From: an uncultured Bacteroidales bacterium
GTDB taxonomy: Bacteria > Bacteroidota > Bacteroidia > Bacteroidales > UBA11471
Length of the DNA: 64,000 nt
Assembly (NCBI GenBank): GCA_947593515.1
Contig: CANQDQ010000004.1
Span: 71,254-135,253, forward strand
Direction: 5' to 3'
Part shown: piece after piece, positions 17,004-59,422 of the stretch
Numbering within the stretch: position 1 is the first letter of the stretch
Layout: each line of letters opens with the position of its first letter
Program-made: the position numbers and the translations under genes
Notes under the pieces: generated by a model
Told to the model about the DNA's origin: nothing
Databases searched by the model: none
What the model saw: the letters and a program-made list of their open reading frames with translations, nothing else

Positions 17004-17079
17004 GATTCGCTAGCTCAGCTGGTAGAGCACAACACTTTTAATGTTGGGGTCCTGGGTTCGAGCCCCAGGCGGATCACCA
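17004..17079 (+). tRNA. tRNA-Lys (anticodon TTT)
   Basis: Hand-folded cloverleaf. Acceptor GATTCGC/GCGGATC, D-arm GCTC-AGCTGGTA-GAGC, anticodon arm CAACA-CTTTTAA-TGTTG, T-arm CTGGG-TTCGAGC-CCCAG. CCA is encoded. Confidence 0.93.
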
Positions 17080-17209: not shown

Positions 17210-17286
17210 TGGCGGTGCGGACGGGACTCGAACCCGCGACCCCATGCGTGACAGGCATGTATTCTAACCAGCTGAACTACCGCACC
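17210..17286 (-). tRNA. tRNA-Asp (anticodon GTC)
   Basis: The reverse complement is GGTGCGGTAGTTCAGCTGGTTAGAATACATGCCTGTCACGCATGGGGTCGCGGGTTCGAGTCCCGTCCGCACCGCCA. The anticodon loop CTGTCAC gives GTC. CCA is encoded. Confidence 0.93.
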
Positions 17287-48256: not shown

Positions 48257-51200
48257 TCAAATACTTACCTTGAATGTCCGTGTTGTGGTTTTCAGCAGGT
48301 AGAAACCTCTTTGCAGCGAGAACGTCGCTTTGCCGTCGGCAGCTTTCTGCGAAGCGATGATGCGTCCCGACAAGTCGATGACATCTACCTGTTCGCCCGC
48401 TGGTACGCCGCTTACGGTTACCGTGCCGTTCGCTACCGTTACGGTCATGTTGTCGGCGATGTTTTCATCGAGGGCATCGACCTCTTCAATGGTGAAGGTG
48501 TAGGAAAGTGCAGGGTTGCAGCGACCGATTTCAGGGTTGGCGATGAATATACTTTCACCGAAAGAGCATTCGGGTATTGTTAAAGTGTATTCGCCCGCAG
48601 CGGTTACAATCTCTTCCAATATCGCTACGATTGTATTGTCATCACCGTCGGTGAGAGTGACAGGATAGCTGGTTTCTCCATTTGTCAGCGTTGCTGCCGC
48701 CGTTTCCGTCGTTCGGATAGAACCTTCGTTTTCCCTGAAAGACAAGGTAAATTCTTTGAGCGACGTGTGTGTTTCCGCCGTATCCGGCGTTATGCCTGTC
48801 GGAATAATCTCTTTTTCCAGTTTCAGCGGTCTTACACCATTGCCTTCGCTATCGGAAATTTTCAACTGGCTGACGGTAACGGTGCCGCCGCCAAGCTCTG
48901 TTGCCGTGAGCTTGATGAAACGCGATTCTTCGTTAAGGCGTATTATATCGTCGAACGGAAAATCGTCGGCATGCAGTACGCGGATTGTACGCCATGTGGG
49001 AGCATCAGTTACATCGGGATTTCGTGTTTCCTGTATTTTGAAATCCACATTTCCCGTTCCGTTGTAGGCGGCTTTCACATCTATGGCTAAAGCTACGTCT
49101 TCGAAATAAGCCATGATTTTATCGCTCGTTTTCGTAAGAGTTGCGTCGTCTTTTGTAGCCGTGCCGGTTATCCAATGGGGATAATCGTCTTTTTTGCTTT
49201 GTTGGTTGCCGTCTGTCCGTGTAAAGTGGGTATAGTCATCGAACGGGGAGAAGTCGAGCGGTTGGTTTATGGCTGCTTTGCCATAGTGAGTTTCGCCTTC
49301 TTCTTTCGGATTGCCGAAATCGCGTGTTGTGAAAGTGATTTTTTCTGCAAACGTTTTTGAATCGACTGTCAAGGCTCCTTCGGGTATGGTAACGGTATAT
49401 TCCGTAAGAACATTCAATGCATTGAATGTAAGAGTCAATGTCTTCCCCGATACCGTAACGTTCATTTCTTCATATTTGCAGGGCGAGAGTTCGATTCCGC
49501 CGTTATATTTGGCATTCTCGTTGAGCGTAAATTCAAGTTTTGTCCCGTCCATATAGCTGATATTCTCCATATCGGGATATTTTTCTATGAACAGCGTTGA
49601 CTGAGGAGTAAATTTCCAAACAGGACCTGTTGTCGTACCGGCATCGTTGGTGGCATCTACTCTCCAATAACAGGGGAAGTCTTCATAAAAATCTGACGTA
49701 TTCGTTATCCACCATACGTATCTTTTTTGGGTAAGATTTGATGCTAATTTTTCCATTTTTTCCGGCTCGGGATAAAGACCGCAATATACATCGTATTTTA
49801 CAGTGCCGAAATAATCTTTGGTTTTATTTTCCCACGAAAATGTAACCCATTCAGAAGAGGGAAGGACTGACCCGTCGTTTTGAGGCGTAGGATTGGTGCA
49901 GGCCTCAGGCGGAGCGGGATCGCCTATCGTTTCGGTGGAAATCGAAATGTAATCCGATGTAAGATCTTGCTCTTTATTGGTTGCACATACGCGGAAGTAA
50001 TAAGTCGTGTTAGGGTTCAGACCCTCTGCCCGATAAGTCGTTGAGTCTGCCGGTAGTTCGGCGCATATTGTAAATGTCTGGTTATCTTCCGATTTTTCGA
50101 CAATATAAGCCGTTTCGTTCACGGTATTGTTACTGCCGGCGTTGTCTTGCCACTGCAATTCGATAGCGAATTTTTCCTGTTTCGTTGCTTCCAGTCGGGT
50201 CGGCATTTTCATGTACGGATAAGCTCTGTCGATGGTGAATACGTAGTTTTCGATATTGGCGTATCCGTTGGACGCGATTTGGGTGGCATCGGAAGCATCG
50301 TTTTTATTGAGGTTGTGGTCATCTTCCCATTCGTCGGGTATGCCGTCGTTGTCGCTGTCGAGCGGTTTTTCACCCTTGTTGAGTATGCCCGTACCGCCGT
50401 GCGGCAGTTCTTTTTCGGAAGAAATACCGTTTGTCGAACCTTCTGTTCCGAATGATTTCAATTCGTCGATCAGATATTGATCCACTTCATCGCGCGCCGG
50501 AAGGCAGGGGCCTACGCTGTCGATAATCCAGTAGAGTGCTTCTTCGGCTGTCATCAGATTGGAAATTTCAGGATGCGGTTTGGGAATATTGGTAAAAGAG
50601 TTGAGATTGTTTACCCGCGTGCTGCCTCCGTCTTCGGTGTACAGTGTTCCGTTCAGTTCGCCGTCGTTGTTATTGTCGTAATAGTTGCCTGCACCGTAAA
50701 ATTGGAATGCGGCTTTTCCGCGTGTGAACGGTTTGGAGCCTTTCCACGGTCCTGTTACGAAATAGTTGTTCTCTATGTGCGCCCACGAAGAAGCCTCCGT
50801 GTCGCCCATGATGTAGCAGCCGCCTCCGCCCCAGTTATATACCACATTATTGACGAACTGGTTAAGACCTTTTACTTTCGGGTTGCGGGTTTTGTTTTCG
50901 ATATAGAGGTTGCGATAGAGCGTAACGCCGCCATTGGTCTGCATCAAGCCGCCGCAGGCGTGACTTTGCAGACCCTGTCCCATAATAGAATTTTGAATGG
51001 TAATGTCGGTAGGTTCCGAACCTTTGTTGTCCCAGTTTATGGAGAAACATTCATCGCGTCCCCACAAGGCGGATATGTGGTCGAATATCATGTCATGCCC
51101 GTTGGCGATACCGCACGCATCTTTACCGCTGTCGCCACCTTTTCCCATACGAAAACGCATGTGTCTTACGATCAAGTTGTTGGCGCCCGAGAACGATACA

Positions 51201-51538
51201 CGGTTGCCATACACCTGTATGCCTTCGCCCGGAGCGGTCTGTCCCAGCACGGTGAGGTTGCCTTTGAACACCAAGCCCGATTTCAGCTTGATAACGCCCG
51301 ATGTGTCGAATACGACGATGCGATTCGACTGGCTTACGGCATCGCGCAGCGAGCCCGGTCCGTCATCGTTGAGGTTGGTTACATGATAGATTTCTCCGCC
51401 CCGACCTCCGGTGGCATATCGACCGAAGCCTTCGGCTCCCGGAAATGCCAACAGCTTTTCCTCTTGTGCCTGTACGGCAGCAGGGACGAACAACATGGCG
51501 AGCCACAATGCTCCCATGATGAAAGTTGTCTTTTTCAT
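48257..51538 (-). CDS. Pectate lyase (PL1) with FN3-like, Ig-like and T9SS C-terminal domains
   Basis: Start trimmed to the ATG at 51538 (MKKTTFIMGALWLAMLFVPAAVQAQ). AFPGAEGFGRYATGGRGGEIYHVTNLNDDGPGSLR ... VRHMRFRMG ... ENKTRNPKV is the PL1 core. A module GEYTLTIPECSFG...CNPALSYTFTI follows. The tail is ...VDVIDLSGRIIASQKAADGKATFSLQRGFYLLKTTTRTFKVSI. Confidence 0.88.
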   Translation of the reverse strand: MKKTTFIMGALWLAMLFVPAAVQAQEEKLLAFPGAEGFGRYATGGRGGEIYHVTNLNDDGPGSLRDAVSQSNRIVVFDTSGVIKLKSGLVFKGNLTVLGQTAPGEGIQVYGNRVSFSGANNLIVRHMRFRMGKGGDSGKDACGIANGHDMIFDHISALWGRDECFSINWDNKGSEPTDITIQNSIMGQGLQSHACGGLMQTNGGVTLYRNLYIENKTRNPKVKGLNQFVNNVVYNWGGGGCYIMGDTEASSWAHIENNYFVTGPWKGSKPFTRGKAAFQFYGAGNYYDNNNDGELNGTLYTEDGGSTRVNNLNSFTNIPKPHPEISNLMTAEEALYWIIDSVGPCLPARDEVDQYLIDELKSFGTEGSTNGISSEKELPHGGTGILNKGEKPLDSDNDGIPDEWEDDHNLNKNDASDATQIASNGYANIENYVFTIDRAYPYMKMPTRLEATKQEKFAIELQWQDNAGSNNTVNETAYIVEKSEDNQTFTICAELPADSTTYRAEGLNPNTTYYFRVCATNKEQDLTSDYISISTETIGDPAPPEACTNPTPQNDGSVLPSSEWVTFSWENKTKDYFGTVKYDVYCGLYPEPEKMEKLASNLTQKRYVWWITNTSDFYEDFPCYWRVDATNDAGTTTGPVWKFTPQSTLFIEKYPDMENISYMDGTKLEFTLNENAKYNGGIELSPCKYEEMNVTVSGKTLTLTFNALNVLTEYTVTIPEGALTVDSKTFAEKITFTTRDFGNPKEEGETHYGKAAINQPLDFSPFDDYTHFTRTDGNQQSKKDDYPHWITGTATKDDATLTKTSDKIMAYFEDVALAIDVKAAYNGTGNVDFKIQETRNPDVTDAPTWRTIRVLHADDFPFDDIIRLNEESRFIKLTATELGGGTVTVSQLKISDSEGNGVRPLKLEKEIIPTGITPDTAETHTSLKEFTLSFRENEGSIRTTETAAATLTNGETSYPVTLTDGDDNTIVAILEEIVTAAGEYTLTIPECSFGESIFIANPEIGRCNPALSYTFTIEEVDALDENIADNMTVTVANGTVTVSGVPAGEQVDVIDLSGRIIASQKAADGKATFSLQRGFYLLKTTTRTFKVSI

Positions 51539-51647
51539 GGTCTTTCTTTTAATTTGTTGGTTAGTGCAAATCCGACAAAATATTTTATCGAAATTACAGG
51601 GCAAATATAATAATTTATTTCAATCGCACATGAAATATGATAGTATT

Positions 51648-52436
51648 TTATCTGTCTAATAATTCTTTTAAGAATTGTTTTGACGTTTCTACGTCTATAG
51701 TATTGACAAATGATTTTTCCTTTAATAATTCATTTATAATTTTTCCATTGAATTGTGCTGTTCCTCTTGTAGCTTTTCCTGCCCAATGATGTTGTAGAAG
51801 TGTCGTTTTTTGCAATTTGTTATGAAATACCGAAGCCAATACAGTATTAACAATACCGGTTTCGTCAATGCCGACAAAGAAAAACATAAAGACAGATTTA
51901 TTTTTACCCATACATTTGAGGAACTTGTCTATATTATAGGCTTTGGGATTTGAATCTAAATACAGAACTTTTGTTTTAACATCTGTGTAAGAATCTGAAT
52001 CAGAGAAATTTCTAACATAATCTCCTAACTCATTCTTTGTGTCATAAGTTGGAAGAAGATGTTCTACATGACTTAAGTCCTTTAATAGTTGAGCCTGTTC
52101 TTTTTGATTTGAAGTGATAAGTACTTCAATGAGTCTTCCTCGAATATTAACATTGTCTATGTGCGATGCAACTACAATTGCGTCCTTTACTTCTTCGCAT
52201 CGATTACGCAAATCGTTTAGAAGAGTATTATAATCATCTGATTCGACAAAATTTTTCGCTCTTTGGGGTGCGTTGAAAAGATTGCTTTGTTCTGTTTCAT
52301 CTAATACTTCCTTTACTTTGTTTGGCTTTATATTATTGGTGCTTTCAACTAATCTTTCTATGTTTTCCTGCCATGAAAAGCCTTGATGATATGAGAATAA
52401 ATCGTCGAAATCGGCAGGTATGTTATTTTTTTCCAA
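51648..52436 (-). CDS. Hypothetical protein; probably the C-terminal two thirds of a frameshifted restriction endonuclease
   Basis: 262-codon ORF whose only available start is a TTG inside the tail of the upstream ORF, with a 14-nt overlap. GDYVRNFSDSDSYTDVKTK has a D...DxK spacing compatible with PD-(D/E)XK; this is a weak pattern match only. Confidence 0.5.
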   Translation of the reverse strand: MEKNNIPADFDDLFSYHQGFSWQENIERLVESTNNIKPNKVKEVLDETEQSNLFNAPQRAKNFVESDDYNTLLNDLRNRCEEVKDAIVVASHIDNVNIRGRLIEVLITSNQKEQAQLLKDLSHVEHLLPTYDTKNELGDYVRNFSDSDSYTDVKTKVLYLDSNPKAYNIDKFLKCMGKNKSVFMFFFVGIDETGIVNTVLASVFHNKLQKTTLLQHHWAGKATRGTAQFNGKIINELLKEKSFVNTIDVETSKQFLKELLDR

Positions 52437-52821
52437 TTTCCGTTAATTCTTTACGTATGTTGCTTCCAAGAAAACTGCCTCTTATGTTTTCAGCTCGTAA
52501 ATCTTGAGAGCTATGACTTATCTTGTCGAGAAATGTTGTATTGATTAAATATATAACATTGTCCAAGTCTTTTTTTACTAATACGACAAAGCAAGGAATG
52601 TGATCGTATTTTTCAAGTTTGGAAAGCGATAGTATTACATTACTGAATGAATTGTTTTTACTATAACAAAATATGACAGCAAAGAAATCGGTATGATAAA
52701 CAGCTCTACCATCTTTTACCATGGGAAAGCTATTACATACGGTTTTTATCATTTCTTCTTTAGTATTGATTCCTTTATTATTTTCAACGAGTTGAACGAA
52801 ATTATGTACTATTTGATTCAT
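52423..52821 (-). CDS. Hypothetical protein; probably the N-terminal third of the same frameshifted endonuclease
   Basis: The ATG at 52821 lies 2 nt after the methyltransferase stop. The tracked start at 52911 would overlap the methylase by 88 nt. The ORF ends ...EIGKK-TAA within an A7 tract. Confidence 0.5.
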   Translation of the reverse strand: MNQIVHNFVQLVENNKGINTKEEMIKTVCNSFPMVKDGRAVYHTDFFAVIFCYSKNNSFSNVILSLSKLEKYDHIPCFVVLVKKDLDNVIYLINTTFLDKISHSSQDLRAENIRGSFLGSNIRKELTEIGKK

Positions 52822-52823
52822 AT

Positions 52824-53750
52824 TTAGAATAGTATTTGTTGAACTTTTGCCTTGTTTGACTTCTCGGAAGATTTGTTTGTCTTTTGGGCATTGAGAGAGT
52901 TTCGCTCCCAAAACACTCCATCGAAATAACCTTGTATTGAGTTGTCGTCAGCTGCATTCATAAGTCTCTTTACCGCCCAATAGCAATATTCGCGGTTTAT
53001 TTCGATGCCACAGTATTTTCTTCCAAGTTTGTGGGCTACTACCGCTGAAGTTCCACTACCTAAAAATGGGTCAAAAATTTTAGAACCTGGTTTTGAGGAG
53101 GCAAGGATTAATTTTGCATAAAGTTTCTCCGGTTTTTGGGTCGGATGATCTGTATTTTCTGGCATTGACCAGAATGGAATGCTAATATCATCCCAGAAAT
53201 TTGATGGATAGGTAATTCGAAAATTACCCGACTCTGTTTCTTCCCAATCTTTTGGCTTGCCATCAACTTTATATGGAGCTATTACTTTCCTTTTCATCTT
53301 AACAGATTCTACATCAAGATAATAATTTTTGGAATTCTTGACGGCAAACCAAATATCCTCCATGGCATTTTTCCAATTTGATTTAGCTCCTCTTCCTTTT
53401 TCTCTCTGCCAAGTAATTCTATTGATAACAGAAAGGCGTTCTTCTATAACCCTTTGCATAGAAGATGAGCATTTCCAATCGCCGCACATATAAAGCGTGC
53501 CATTAGGTGCAAGTTTATCACAGACTTTATAAAACCAACTTCTGAGATAATCTTCGTAAGCTTCGGATTTCATACTTGAAAACTTCTTGCCATGGAAGTC
53601 CTTATCAAGGTTATAGGGAGGGTCTATAATGATTAGATCGAAATATTCATTAGGAATAGAATCCAGACAGTCAAAGAGGTCTGCATTGATTATCGAATTA
53701 TCGACAAACGACTCTTTGATATCATTCGCGCTTAATATAAATTTCTCCAA
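52824..53750 (-). CDS. Beta-class DNA methyltransferase (N6-adenine or N4-cytosine; the DPPY motif favours N6-adenine)
   Basis: Motif IV IIIDPPYN precedes motif I FDPFLGSGTSAVVA, and HPTQKPEKL is also present. The only in-frame start is the TTG at 53750, with no upstream ATG or GTG before the frame runs out of start codons. Confidence 0.85.
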   Translation of the reverse strand: MEKFILSANDIKESFVDNSIINADLFDCLDSIPNEYFDLIIIDPPYNLDKDFHGKKFSSMKSEAYEDYLRSWFYKVCDKLAPNGTLYMCGDWKCSSSMQRVIEERLSVINRITWQREKGRGAKSNWKNAMEDIWFAVKNSKNYYLDVESVKMKRKVIAPYKVDGKPKDWEETESGNFRITYPSNFWDDISIPFWSMPENTDHPTQKPEKLYAKLILASSKPGSKIFDPFLGSGTSAVVAHKLGRKYCGIEINREYCYWAVKRLMNAADDNSIQGYFDGVFWERNSLNAQKTNKSSEKSNKAKVQQILF

Positions 53751-53930
53751 CGTAGGTATCTCGCTTTCTGAGACTGTTAATGTTCGATTACGTTCTGCAC
53801 GAATTTTTCTGTCATAATTACTTACTATTAGTCTGTCCCTGCTAATCTTTTAATTTCGATTTTTATAATCGAAATATCTGTTACCTTTTTTGTTTTCGAG
53901 TCGATAGGGTTGCTGTTGTCATGGGGTTCC

Positions 53931-55820
53931 TTACCGCTGGCGGTTTTGCTGCTGCTTCCGCAAGGCAGCCTGCTGCTGGCGCTGCGCCTCTTCGAGCCGT
54001 GCCATGAAGCCCGATTTTTTCTTGGGCTTTTTCTGGTTCTCTTTGAGCTTGGCGAGCACTTTTTCCTCGTTGATGCATTTGCGGAAGATGTAGGTCTGCA
54101 CAATGGTAATCAACAGCGATACGAAATAGTAGTAGCTCAATCCCGAAGCGTAGTTATTGAAGATGAACAGGAACATCAGCGGCATGAGATACATCATCGC
54201 TTTCATGCCGGGCATCTGTTGTCCGCCGCCCGTGCTGTCCATATTTATTTTCGTATAAAGAATGTTGGTGATGGTCATCAACAGGCAGAAAAGACTGATG
54301 TGGTTGCCGAAGTAGGGGGTGATGATGGGAATGTAGGCGTCCCACGAGAAAATGGCGTCGTACGACGAAAGGTCGTCAGCCCACAGGAACGACTGCTGCC
54401 GCAGCTCGATGGAGGAGGGGAAGAACGCGAACATCGCCAGCAGTATAGGCATCTGCAACAGCACCGGCAGACAGCCGCTCATGGGATTGGCGCCCGCATT
54501 GCTGTACAGCTCCATCGTGGCGCGCTGCCGTTCCATCGCCTTTTCCTGTCCGGGATATTTGGCGTTGATTTCTTCGACCTGCGGTTTCAGCACGCGCATA
54601 CGTGCGCTCGACATGTACGACTTGAATGTCAGTGGCATAAGCACCGCCTTGATGATAAGCGTGAGCAACAGTATGATGATGCCGTAGTTGGCGATGTATT
54701 TGCCGAGGAACGTGAATATGGGAATGATGATGCCCGTGTTTATCCAGCGGAAAAATTTGTAACCTAACGGGATAAGTTTCGGAAGTTGCAGCTTGTCGTC
54801 GGCTCTCACCCCCTTGTCGTAGCTGCGGAGCAACGGATAGAGGTTGGGACCGAGAAAGAAGCGGAAGCCGGGACCCGCAGCCGCAGCGGGGTCGTAGTCG
54901 AGCGTTGTCTCCGCCTTGTAGCTTTTGAGGTATTTGTCGGTGGCGAGCACCTCCGATTCCATGCGTGCGCCGTTGAAACTCTTGTCGGCGATAAGCACCG
55001 ACGAAAAGAACTGGTTTTTGAATCCTATCCATTTCACGCGCGTGGAAATGCTTTCGCGGTCGGCTTTCGACTCGCTGAGGTGTTCCACGTCGTCGCCTAT
55101 CTTATAATAGATGGCGCTGTACCGTTCCTCGAACACGCGCCCCCGTTCCTGCCGGCGCAGGTCTTGCGTCCAGTACATATCGAGGTCGACGGTGTTGCGG
55201 GGCAGTATGGTTTCCATGCCGTTTTGGCGGATTTTCATGTCGAGCATATACCCCTCGGCAGGCAGGGTGTAGCATATCTCGAAATACCGTTTGTCGTCGA
55301 ACGCGAGTTTCATCGAGAGCGTCCGCCCGTCGGCAGAGAGCGCGGGCGTGAAGTAGAGGTCGGCGGTATTGATGGTGCGCCCCTGCGTCTTGAATATGAA
55401 TCCGTAGGTGTTGTCGCTGGCATCGAACAGGGTCAGCGGCAGCGAGTCGTAGGTATGGTAGTCGTTGAGTACGGCTTCGGTGAGGCGACCGCCTGCGGTC
55501 GAGAACGTCAGCGACACTTGCTGATTCGAGAGCGTTACGGTCGATTCTTCGCCTTCGGCAAAAGGTGCGAAATCGACATACTCCTGCCGCAGCGCATCGG
55601 CGTGGCTGTCGGCTGTTTCGGCGGCAGCCTCCTGCGCCGCCGGCTCGATGCCGGTATCGACGCTCTGCATTTCTGCTACACGCGCATTTTCAACTTGCAG
55701 CAGGGAGTCTTGGTAGTGCTGCATGGCGGCTTTCTGCTCCGGCGTCGGTCGCATGAACCACGTGTACCCGAAGAGTACGGCGACCATGAGGAGAAAGCCT
55801 ATGATTGTATTTTTATCCAT
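53931..55820 (-). CDS. yidC: Membrane protein insertase YidC (long Bacteroidetes form)
   Basis: 629 aa. MDKNTIIGFLLMVAVLFGY, a large periplasmic domain, then GANPMSGCLPVLLQMPILLAMF and a basic C-terminal tail. Confidence 0.92.
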   Translation of the reverse strand: MDKNTIIGFLLMVAVLFGYTWFMRPTPEQKAAMQHYQDSLLQVENARVAEMQSVDTGIEPAAQEAAAETADSHADALRQEYVDFAPFAEGEESTVTLSNQQVSLTFSTAGGRLTEAVLNDYHTYDSLPLTLFDASDNTYGFIFKTQGRTINTADLYFTPALSADGRTLSMKLAFDDKRYFEICYTLPAEGYMLDMKIRQNGMETILPRNTVDLDMYWTQDLRRQERGRVFEERYSAIYYKIGDDVEHLSESKADRESISTRVKWIGFKNQFFSSVLIADKSFNGARMESEVLATDKYLKSYKAETTLDYDPAAAAGPGFRFFLGPNLYPLLRSYDKGVRADDKLQLPKLIPLGYKFFRWINTGIIIPIFTFLGKYIANYGIIILLLTLIIKAVLMPLTFKSYMSSARMRVLKPQVEEINAKYPGQEKAMERQRATMELYSNAGANPMSGCLPVLLQMPILLAMFAFFPSSIELRQQSFLWADDLSSYDAIFSWDAYIPIITPYFGNHISLFCLLMTITNILYTKINMDSTGGGQQMPGMKAMMYLMPLMFLFIFNNYASGLSYYYFVSLLITIVQTYIFRKCINEEKVLAKLKENQKKPKKKSGFMARLEEAQRQQQAALRKQQQNRQR

Positions 55821-59348: not shown

Positions 59349-59422
59349 TGATCGGGGTGGGATTCGAACCCACGACCCACAGCTTAGAAGGCTGTTGCTC
59401 TATCCAGCTGAGCTACCCGACC
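59349..59422 (-). tRNA. tRNA-Arg (anticodon TCT)
   Basis: The reverse complement is GGTCGGGTAGCTCAGCTGGATAGAGCAACAGCCTTCTAAGCTGTGGGTCGTGGGTTCGAATCCCACCCCGATCA. The anticodon loop CTTCTAA gives TCT. CCA is not encoded. Confidence 0.9.

Follow-up and report, generated by a model that had tools for sequence, protein, structure and literature searches.

The restriction-modification (R-M) locus on the minus strand of the 64,000-nt stretch of uncultured Bacteroidales DNA analysed here (the window) is very probably an acquired Type II cassette in which first the endonuclease gene (R) and then the methylase gene (M) were broken by slippage, rather than the outcome of an error or of an active switch. 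According to this proposal, a cassette of ~2.3 kb would have been acquired horizontally. In its intact state, a 330-aa β-class DPPY methyltransferase would mark the host's own sites and would be co-transcribed with a 390-aa HincII-like endonuclease that cleaves unmarked DNA. Replication slippage would then have lengthened an A6 run at endonuclease codons 130-132 by one A, halting translation after 132 residues, upstream of all catalytic residues. This A7 mutation would have become fixed in one lineage, and a sub-lineage that includes the window would later have dropped one A from a second A6 run, at methylase codons 3-5. The resulting A5 would sever the methylase ATG and a conserved N-terminal motif from the methylase frame.

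The endonuclease pseudogene spans 1174 nt on the minus strand (51648..52821) and, when repaired to A6, measures 1173 nt and encodes 390 aa. The minus-strand junction, read directly from the sequence, is GAA ATT GGA AAA AAA TAA CAT ACC, and the homopolymer within it is exactly seven A long (plus-strand T7, 52426-52432), flanked by A and C. By comparison with the sister haplotype described below, one base has been inserted (+1) in this tract, which was ancestrally A6. The A7 creates the TAA at 52423-52425, which closes an N-terminal fragment ORF (52423..52821, minus strand) of 132 aa that starts with ATG, ends in TEIGKK before the stop, and contains no catalytic residue. The C-terminal fragment frame (51648..52436, minus strand) comprises 262 codons, and its only early start is a TTG inside the tail of the 132-aa ORF; its first ATG is codon 175, past the catalytic residues. 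Deletion of one A from the tract yields a 390-aa ORF, while addition of two A yields 391 aa. A preliminary description of this DNA had reported the tract and the bounds of both ORFs, the reliance of the downstream ORF on a TTG in the upstream tail, the fusion at about 390 aa upon loss of one A, and the position of the gene immediately downstream of a methyltransferase. All of these hold on re-reading, and the endonuclease start lies 2 nt past the methylase stop.

The A7 tract by itself is statistically unremarkable; homopolymer runs of at least 7 number 31 within the 64-kb window. The endonuclease gene is AT-rich, and it contains a second A7 tract (52570..52576, minus strand) that is read in frame (VKKD), serves as an internal control, and is the same in 22 of 22 copies examined. 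The end-to-end alignment of the repaired ORF with hundreds of 390-aa proteins, on the other hand, is far beyond chance: the 390-aa ORF matches its homologues with E ~1e-216 at 100% coverage, and the homologue alignment crosses the junction gap-free (...EIGKNNKP...). In the window genome itself, the reading frame required for an active enzyme is interrupted.

A sequence search with the repaired protein gives 1,489 homologues; almost all of the top 120 have a length of exactly 390 aa, and they align at 100% query coverage and 68-84% identity. Where the source gives any name for them, it is 'hypothetical protein'. When each species was represented by one genome, 157 loci were confirmed in Bacteroidota, Chloroflexota, Planctomycetota, Proteobacteria, Firmicutes, and others, and 80 of these were kept for comparison. 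A single near-full-length stretch without an in-frame stop, defined as an alignment from residue ≤10 to residue ≥380, is present in 72 of the 80, and one further locus (L044), whose alignment had merely ended early, is the 73rd intact one. The homologues, which the preliminary description had proposed to inspect for single ORFs, are thus nearly all one protein of ~390 aa. Nearly all of the 80 loci with enough flank have a homologous methyltransferase gene as the next gene upstream, in the same orientation, such that linkage to a cognate methyltransferase is kept across taxa.

The intact sister allele matches a curated Type II restriction endonuclease profile over its full length (PADLOC REase_II, PDLC03461; E=9.2e-94, residues 5-388, profile positions 4-382 of 384). 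The two fragments of the window cover consecutive parts of the same profile, 4-126 for the N-terminal and 128-382 for the C-terminal one. The profile search that had been proposed at the outset for the fused protein and its halves, run here on the intact sister allele and the two fragments, returns one Type II endonuclease profile that covers both halves. Scans of the fused protein with Pfam and NCBIfam gave nothing above noise, the PDB yielded no sequence match to the single protein or to a profile of 44 sequences, and tblastn against plasmid and phage collections was equally negative. Judged by profile and predicted structure, the gene is to be read as a real Type II restriction endonuclease gene. 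The family has more than 1,400 members in many phyla and no Pfam or NCBIfam model, and the evidence supports giving it a name, because the REase_II profile, the HincII-like fold, the invariant E/D/DxK residues, and the methylase linkage all point to an endonuclease.

Four residues, E232, D267, D280, and K282 (numbering of the fused protein), do not vary among 44 diverse homologues, whose identity goes as low as 43%. Their codons, with coordinates read from the sequence, lie on the minus strand at 52125-52127 (E232), 52020-52022 (D267), 51981-51983 (D280), and 51975-51977 (K282). E232, D267, and D280-x-K282 probably constitute the active site, which would place all putative catalytic residues of the nuclease in the C-terminal fragment. 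An AlphaFold2 model of the endonuclease has a mean pLDDT of 84.9, and Foldseek searches with it return 28 PDB matches at E≤1e-3, every one of which is HincII. The best of these (E=4.9e-5, probability 1.0) covers the catalytic half of the predicted fold. Next in the Foldseek list are PvuII, SwaI, EcoRV, DpnI, and Holliday-junction resolvases (Hjc). An earlier model built from 23 close sequences had a pLDDT of 75.5 and gave only non-significant Foldseek matches; the final one was built from a slightly more diverse alignment.

The prediction therefore places an acidic/lysine motif on a restriction-endonuclease-like fold, and the PD-(D/E)XK core that the preliminary description had suggested looking for by structure prediction appears as a HincII-like fold with an E...D...D-x-K arrangement. 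On sequence and model, the enzyme can be classed as a Type IIP PD-(D/E)XK endonuclease that belongs to the HincII/EcoRV branch and carries a further domain at its N-terminus. It shares with HincII and with the EcoRV/PvuII/SwaI branch the E...D...D-x-K motif and the pairing of its gene with a methyltransferase. It differs from HincII in that identity is merely 13-17% over an aligned span of ~150-200 residues, the TM-scores are low (0.23 when query-normalised and 0.34-0.36 when target-normalised), and the window protein is ~130 residues longer, with an extra N-terminal α/β domain.

A7, together with a 100% identical R gene, is found in 16 of 16 loci of the window haplotype, which represent 14 distinct contigs since two pairs are the same contig, and the exact 132-aa and 262-aa products are recorded from 17 contigs. 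The A7 copies derive from ERR10663690/691/692/762/763/770, DRR848557, and five ERZ assemblies (ERZ272494xx-6xx and 1xx); the accession series that hold them are ERR106636xx-7xx, ERZ272491xx-6xx, and DRR848557, and proteins of this haplotype are on record from ENA and Logan sources only. Since ENA (ERZ) and Logan (ERR) assemblies may draw on a common set of reads, independent samples are fewer than contigs. A sister haplotype that differs from the window haplotype by 16 substitutions in R carries A6 in 8 of 8 loci (6 distinct contigs), with an intact 390-aa gene. Its product, P0123 (390 aa), clusters with the 262-aa product and is encoded at the same yidC-M-R-fn3 chromosomal site in 6 samples; A6 samples include the runs ERR10663738, ERR10663740, and ERR10663741. 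From this comparison, the in-frame A6 allele appears to be the ancestral state, kept in the same species on a distinct haplotype. An endonuclease inactivated by a frameshift, the first of three readings offered in the preliminary description, is supported by these data: relatives are single proteins of ~390 aa, and the A6 sister is intact at the same chromosomal site. Read from the sequence, the window enzyme is dead, because the stop precedes the catalytic residues and the remaining 262 codons offer no ATG before the active site.

The methylase gene (52824..53815, minus strand) encodes a β-class DPPY DNA methyltransferase (N6_N4_Mtase) and is 5′-frameshifted in the window, a slip from A6 to A5 that the preliminary description did not record. 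Its domain matches PF01555 (1.3e-41) and PADLOC MTase_II (1.6e-67), and its ancestral product is 330 aa long with an ATG at 53813-53815. The 5′ end reads ATGACAG-AAAAAA-TTC in most copies, and the tract at codons 3-5 (53804..53808, minus strand; plus-strand T5) is A5 in the window and in L082/L110, L084, L085, L096/L102, and L107, with A6 in the remaining copies. Under A5, the ATG frame runs into a stop after 12 codons (MTEKFVQNVIEH followed by the stop). The earliest canonical start still available to the methylase frame is a TTG (53748..53750, minus strand) that would give a 308-aa product; upstream of it, back to the stop at 53850-53852, the frame holds no ATG, GTG, or TTG. This TTG falls downstream of the conserved N-terminal K-x-R-A-x-R-N-R-T motif. 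Gene callers give either the 308-aa form or a 249-aa form from Met82, the latter being without DPPY, and a look-up of the 249-aa call gave no recorded position.

The 22 N-terminal residues bypassed by the TTG start include K4, R6, A7, R9, N10, R11, and T12; two of these, N10 and T12, are shared by all 71 homologues compared. The 308-aa form retains the entire Pfam domain as well as DPPY and could still be active. The methylase of the window is nonetheless probably impaired or inactive, because the bypassed N-terminus is conserved in homologues. An orphan methylase, which the preliminary description had expected to be left behind, does exist in those sub-lineages that combine R A7 with an intact M; in the copies L081, L083, L086, L087, and L089, a solitary methyltransferase has its own gene intact. 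For the window this designation is doubtful: the partner nuclease is indeed non-functional by frameshift, but the methylase gene itself is not intact on account of its A5.

M and R are the only genes of a low-GC cassette (51621..53930, approximate bounds) flanked by yidC on one side and by a large gene for an fn3 surface protein on the other. Its GC content is 0.30-0.37 versus 0.50-0.58 in the flanks, and its length of ~2.3 kb follows from the break points of homology to empty sites. Rfam finds only three distant tRNAs, and scans of the cassette for promoter and terminator consensus sequences give no excess over shuffles. Comparison of strains with identical PyrG protein reveals four states of the locus: (i) no cassette (L097 = GCA_947589325.1, L098/L106, L099, L103, L104, and L111), the fn3 gene of such empty sites starting ~200 nt past yidC; (ii) M and R intact (L091-L095, L105, and L108/L109); (iii) M intact with R A7 (the five copies with a solitary intact methylase named above); and (iv) M A5 with R A7 (the window and the other A5 copies).

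The methylase A5 lesion is nested inside the R A7 lineage, which indicates that R was lost first and M second. A cell that loses its methylase but keeps an active nuclease dies, and R-then-M is therefore the only viable order. Both considerations, one drawn from haplotype nesting and one from R-M biology, suggest an order of loss of R then M. Tolerance of the methylase lesion is, in turn, an indirect sign of an inactive split nuclease. A comparison of the two haplotypes gives dN/dS values of 0.32 (R), 0.02 (M), and 0.006 (yidC). R pseudogene copies of the window haplotype show no further substitutions among them, which suggests that the frameshift is recent. The A7 and A6 haplotypes differ at nine amino acids in R; when these are polarised by eye against outgroups, ~3 of the 9 look derived in the window, 1 looks derived in the sister, and the rest are ambiguous, numbers too few to speak for relaxed selection. 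The succession from no cassette to an intact one, to broken R, and to broken R and M amounts to an orderly record, within a single species, of how an R-M system decays. It is consistent with the expected order of R-M loss and constitutes an illustration rather than a new principle.

A contingency locus, in which slipped-strand A tracts in R and M reversibly switch restriction and methylation and produce mixed population states, is a very unlikely explanation. Its attraction is that a single-base homopolymer change toggles the endonuclease frame (open with A6, closed with A7), that two homopolymer indels occur in one cassette with three expression states coexisting in the species, and that both lesions lie in A runs, as expected of such a locus; that homopolymers can switch R-M genes is well established from other bacteria (PMC12707154, PMC3936762). 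The tracts here, however, are merely 5-7 nt long, while the repeats likely to reactivate in a Helicobacter pylori study are those of >8 bp (PMC3936762). Across 22 copies, tract length and haplotype go together without exception, and at the level of the assembled consensus sequences, on which the tract-length evidence is based, length polymorphism on a single background is not seen. Consistent with this, exact look-ups among ~15 billion proteins found no A5, A6, A8, or A9 product for the window haplotype, and for the sister haplotype none with A7.

Relatives give no sign that selection maintains a hypermutable tract: the corresponding A run spans only 2-5 nt in 78 homologues, so that the tract is unconserved. 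Two further tracts of the dead gene, the in-frame A7 (52570-52576) and an A6, are also constant in all 22 copies. Phasevarions chiefly involve Type I and III methylase genes rather than a Type II nuclease (PMC12707154). They resemble the window locus in that a repeat tract within an R-M gene decides whether the frame is open or closed, and they differ in that the locus is without evidence of reversibility, tract conservation, or hypermutable length, and in that the first gene affected is a Type II nuclease and not a regulatory methylase. The phase-variation switch that the preliminary description had listed as its second reading is accordingly unsupported at the consensus level, where tract length follows haplotype, is short, and is absent as a tract in homologues. 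Bacteroidales are otherwise known for invertase-driven variation. That both short tracts (A6/A7 in R, A6/A5 in M) act as genuine reversible switches, which would make this a repeat-driven, phase-variable Type II R-M system in a gut Bacteroidales commensal, is highly improbable; if it were true, the three expression states would be snapshots of switching hidden from consensus assemblies.

Function despite the split is very unlikely as well. It would require either low-level full-length enzyme, made by transcriptional slippage or +1 frameshifting at AAA AAA TAA, or reassembly of the 132-aa and 262-aa pieces. Indels made by RNA polymerase in A runs rise exponentially with run length, yet the same transcriptome study saw no transcription error that restored a reading frame (PMC5574713). 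The sequence A_AAA_AAA favors a -1 shift, after which the frame stops ~20 codons on, whereas fusion of the two ORFs requires a +1 shift or an mRNA one A shorter; the slippery motif is thus in a register other than the one needed. Programmed slippage and frameshifting, as in dnaX and IS elements (PMC5009743), also bring overlapping frames together at an A-rich slippery sequence, but the two-frame layout of the window recurs in no homologue, none being normally split or frameshifted, the shift required is +1 instead of -1, and an in-frame A6 allele is present in the same species. As for reassembly, both pieces are called as ORFs by gene callers, and the overlap of the TTG with the end of the upstream ORF makes termination-reinitiation conceivable, but in the model the break interrupts a region of confident fold rather than a free linker. 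Nothing supports fragment complementation from the overlapping TTG. The sub-lineage, moreover, tolerates a methylase frameshift that would be lethal with an active nuclease unless the truncated methylase works.

The third reading of the preliminary description, a homopolymer sequencing or assembly error that conceals a true A6 tract and an intact gene, is almost certainly wrong: only one base is at issue and homopolymer miscounts are common on some platforms, but A7 appears in every recovered copy of the window haplotype (14 of 14 distinct copies, separately assembled, from two assemblers and three accession series), and the same projects resolve A6 correctly on the sister haplotype, which refutes an error at the consensus level.

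Decay of the cassette by frameshift has several practical consequences. The two ORFs should be annotated as one frameshifted R pseudogene, and the methylase should be flagged as 5′-frameshifted rather than called as a 308-aa or 249-aa protein. The strain is predicted to be non-restricting via this system and may be without cognate-site methylation too. The locus is of use chiefly for annotation and as an illustration of the decay process, as it is a further example of a well-known one, the decay of Type II R-M systems by homopolymer slippage. Type II R-M frameshifts that leave a solitary methylase are well documented in Helicobacter pylori (PMC3936762). As there, a one-base homopolymer indel cuts an R-M gene short, part of the population retains the partner methylase, and strains vary in presence, absence, and activity. 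The differences are that the host here is a gut Bacteroidales and not a naturally hypermutable pathogen, that the tracts are short (A6/A7 and A6/A5), and that the methylase of the window is damaged too.

Disrupted copies also occur in other species, where 5 of 78 are independent cases that lie broken at differing places. The copy in the Paramuribaculum intestinale DSM 100749 record (L009) has a nonsense codon at position 190, a Prevotella MAG (L019) carries a frameshift in the endonuclease gene, L030 is a 5′-truncated endonuclease remnant without a methylase, and L050 and L075 have nonsense codons in the endonuclease gene.

The M-R cassette (approximately 51621-53930) is missing entirely at the conspecific loci L097, L098/L106, L099, L103, L104, and L111, where yidC is followed by a spacer of approximately 200 nt and then by the fn3 gene; the strains carrying these empty sites have an identical PyrG protein. 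The exact point of cassette insertion is uncertain because the upstream part of the cassette flank seems to retain residual similarity to the empty-site spacer.

Where the cassette with the A7-frameshifted R gene (dead-R) is present in the conspecific loci L081 and L083, it matches that of the window with 0 mismatches across M, R, and the spacers, despite a 2.8% difference in the neighboring yidC gene (53931-55820). The occurrence of an identical dead-R cassette on yidC backgrounds this far apart suggests that the haplotype has spread between strains by recombination or is much younger than the diversity of the species. On its other side, the cassette adjoins a large gene for a surface or secreted fn3-domain protein (48257-51538, minus strand), which is much more divergent among conspecific strains than the neighboring genes, with identities of 79-92% at its 5′ end versus 97-98% for yidC and pyrG.

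Disruption of the R gene has arisen independently in further species, represented by five loci with R homologs. In Paramuribaculum intestinale DSM 100749 (L009; NZ_PUED01000055.1, 4001-5170), the record of a cultured DSM strain, R carries a nonsense codon at position 190, and nonsense codons also occur in R at L050 and L075. The R gene of L019 is frameshifted near codon 125, while L030 retains a 5′-truncated R remnant without a methylase.

The methylase gene (52824-53815, minus strand) has its own one-base homopolymer deletion, with A5 at 53804-53808 versus A6 in most related copies. As a result, the ATG at 53813-53815 no longer lies in the methylase reading frame, and the A5 methylase can start only from a TTG, for a product of 308 aa, or from Met82, for a product of 249 aa that lacks the DPPY motif. 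A further A7 run at 52570-52576, located in frame (VKKD) inside the N-terminal fragment of R, has the same length in all 22 copies examined. Rfam matches across the window comprise only three tRNA genes (17004-17076, plus strand; 17213-17286 and 59349-59422, minus strand), which bear no relation to the R-M finding.

Upstream of the methylase start, the yidC-methylase intergenic region contains a perfect 8-nt inverted repeat, ATTTCGAT-TATAAAA-ATCGAAAT (53853-53875, minus strand), a candidate operator or promoter element, or else a possible component of a terminator. The empty-site spacer holds a similar palindrome, CATTCCGAT...ATCGGAATG.
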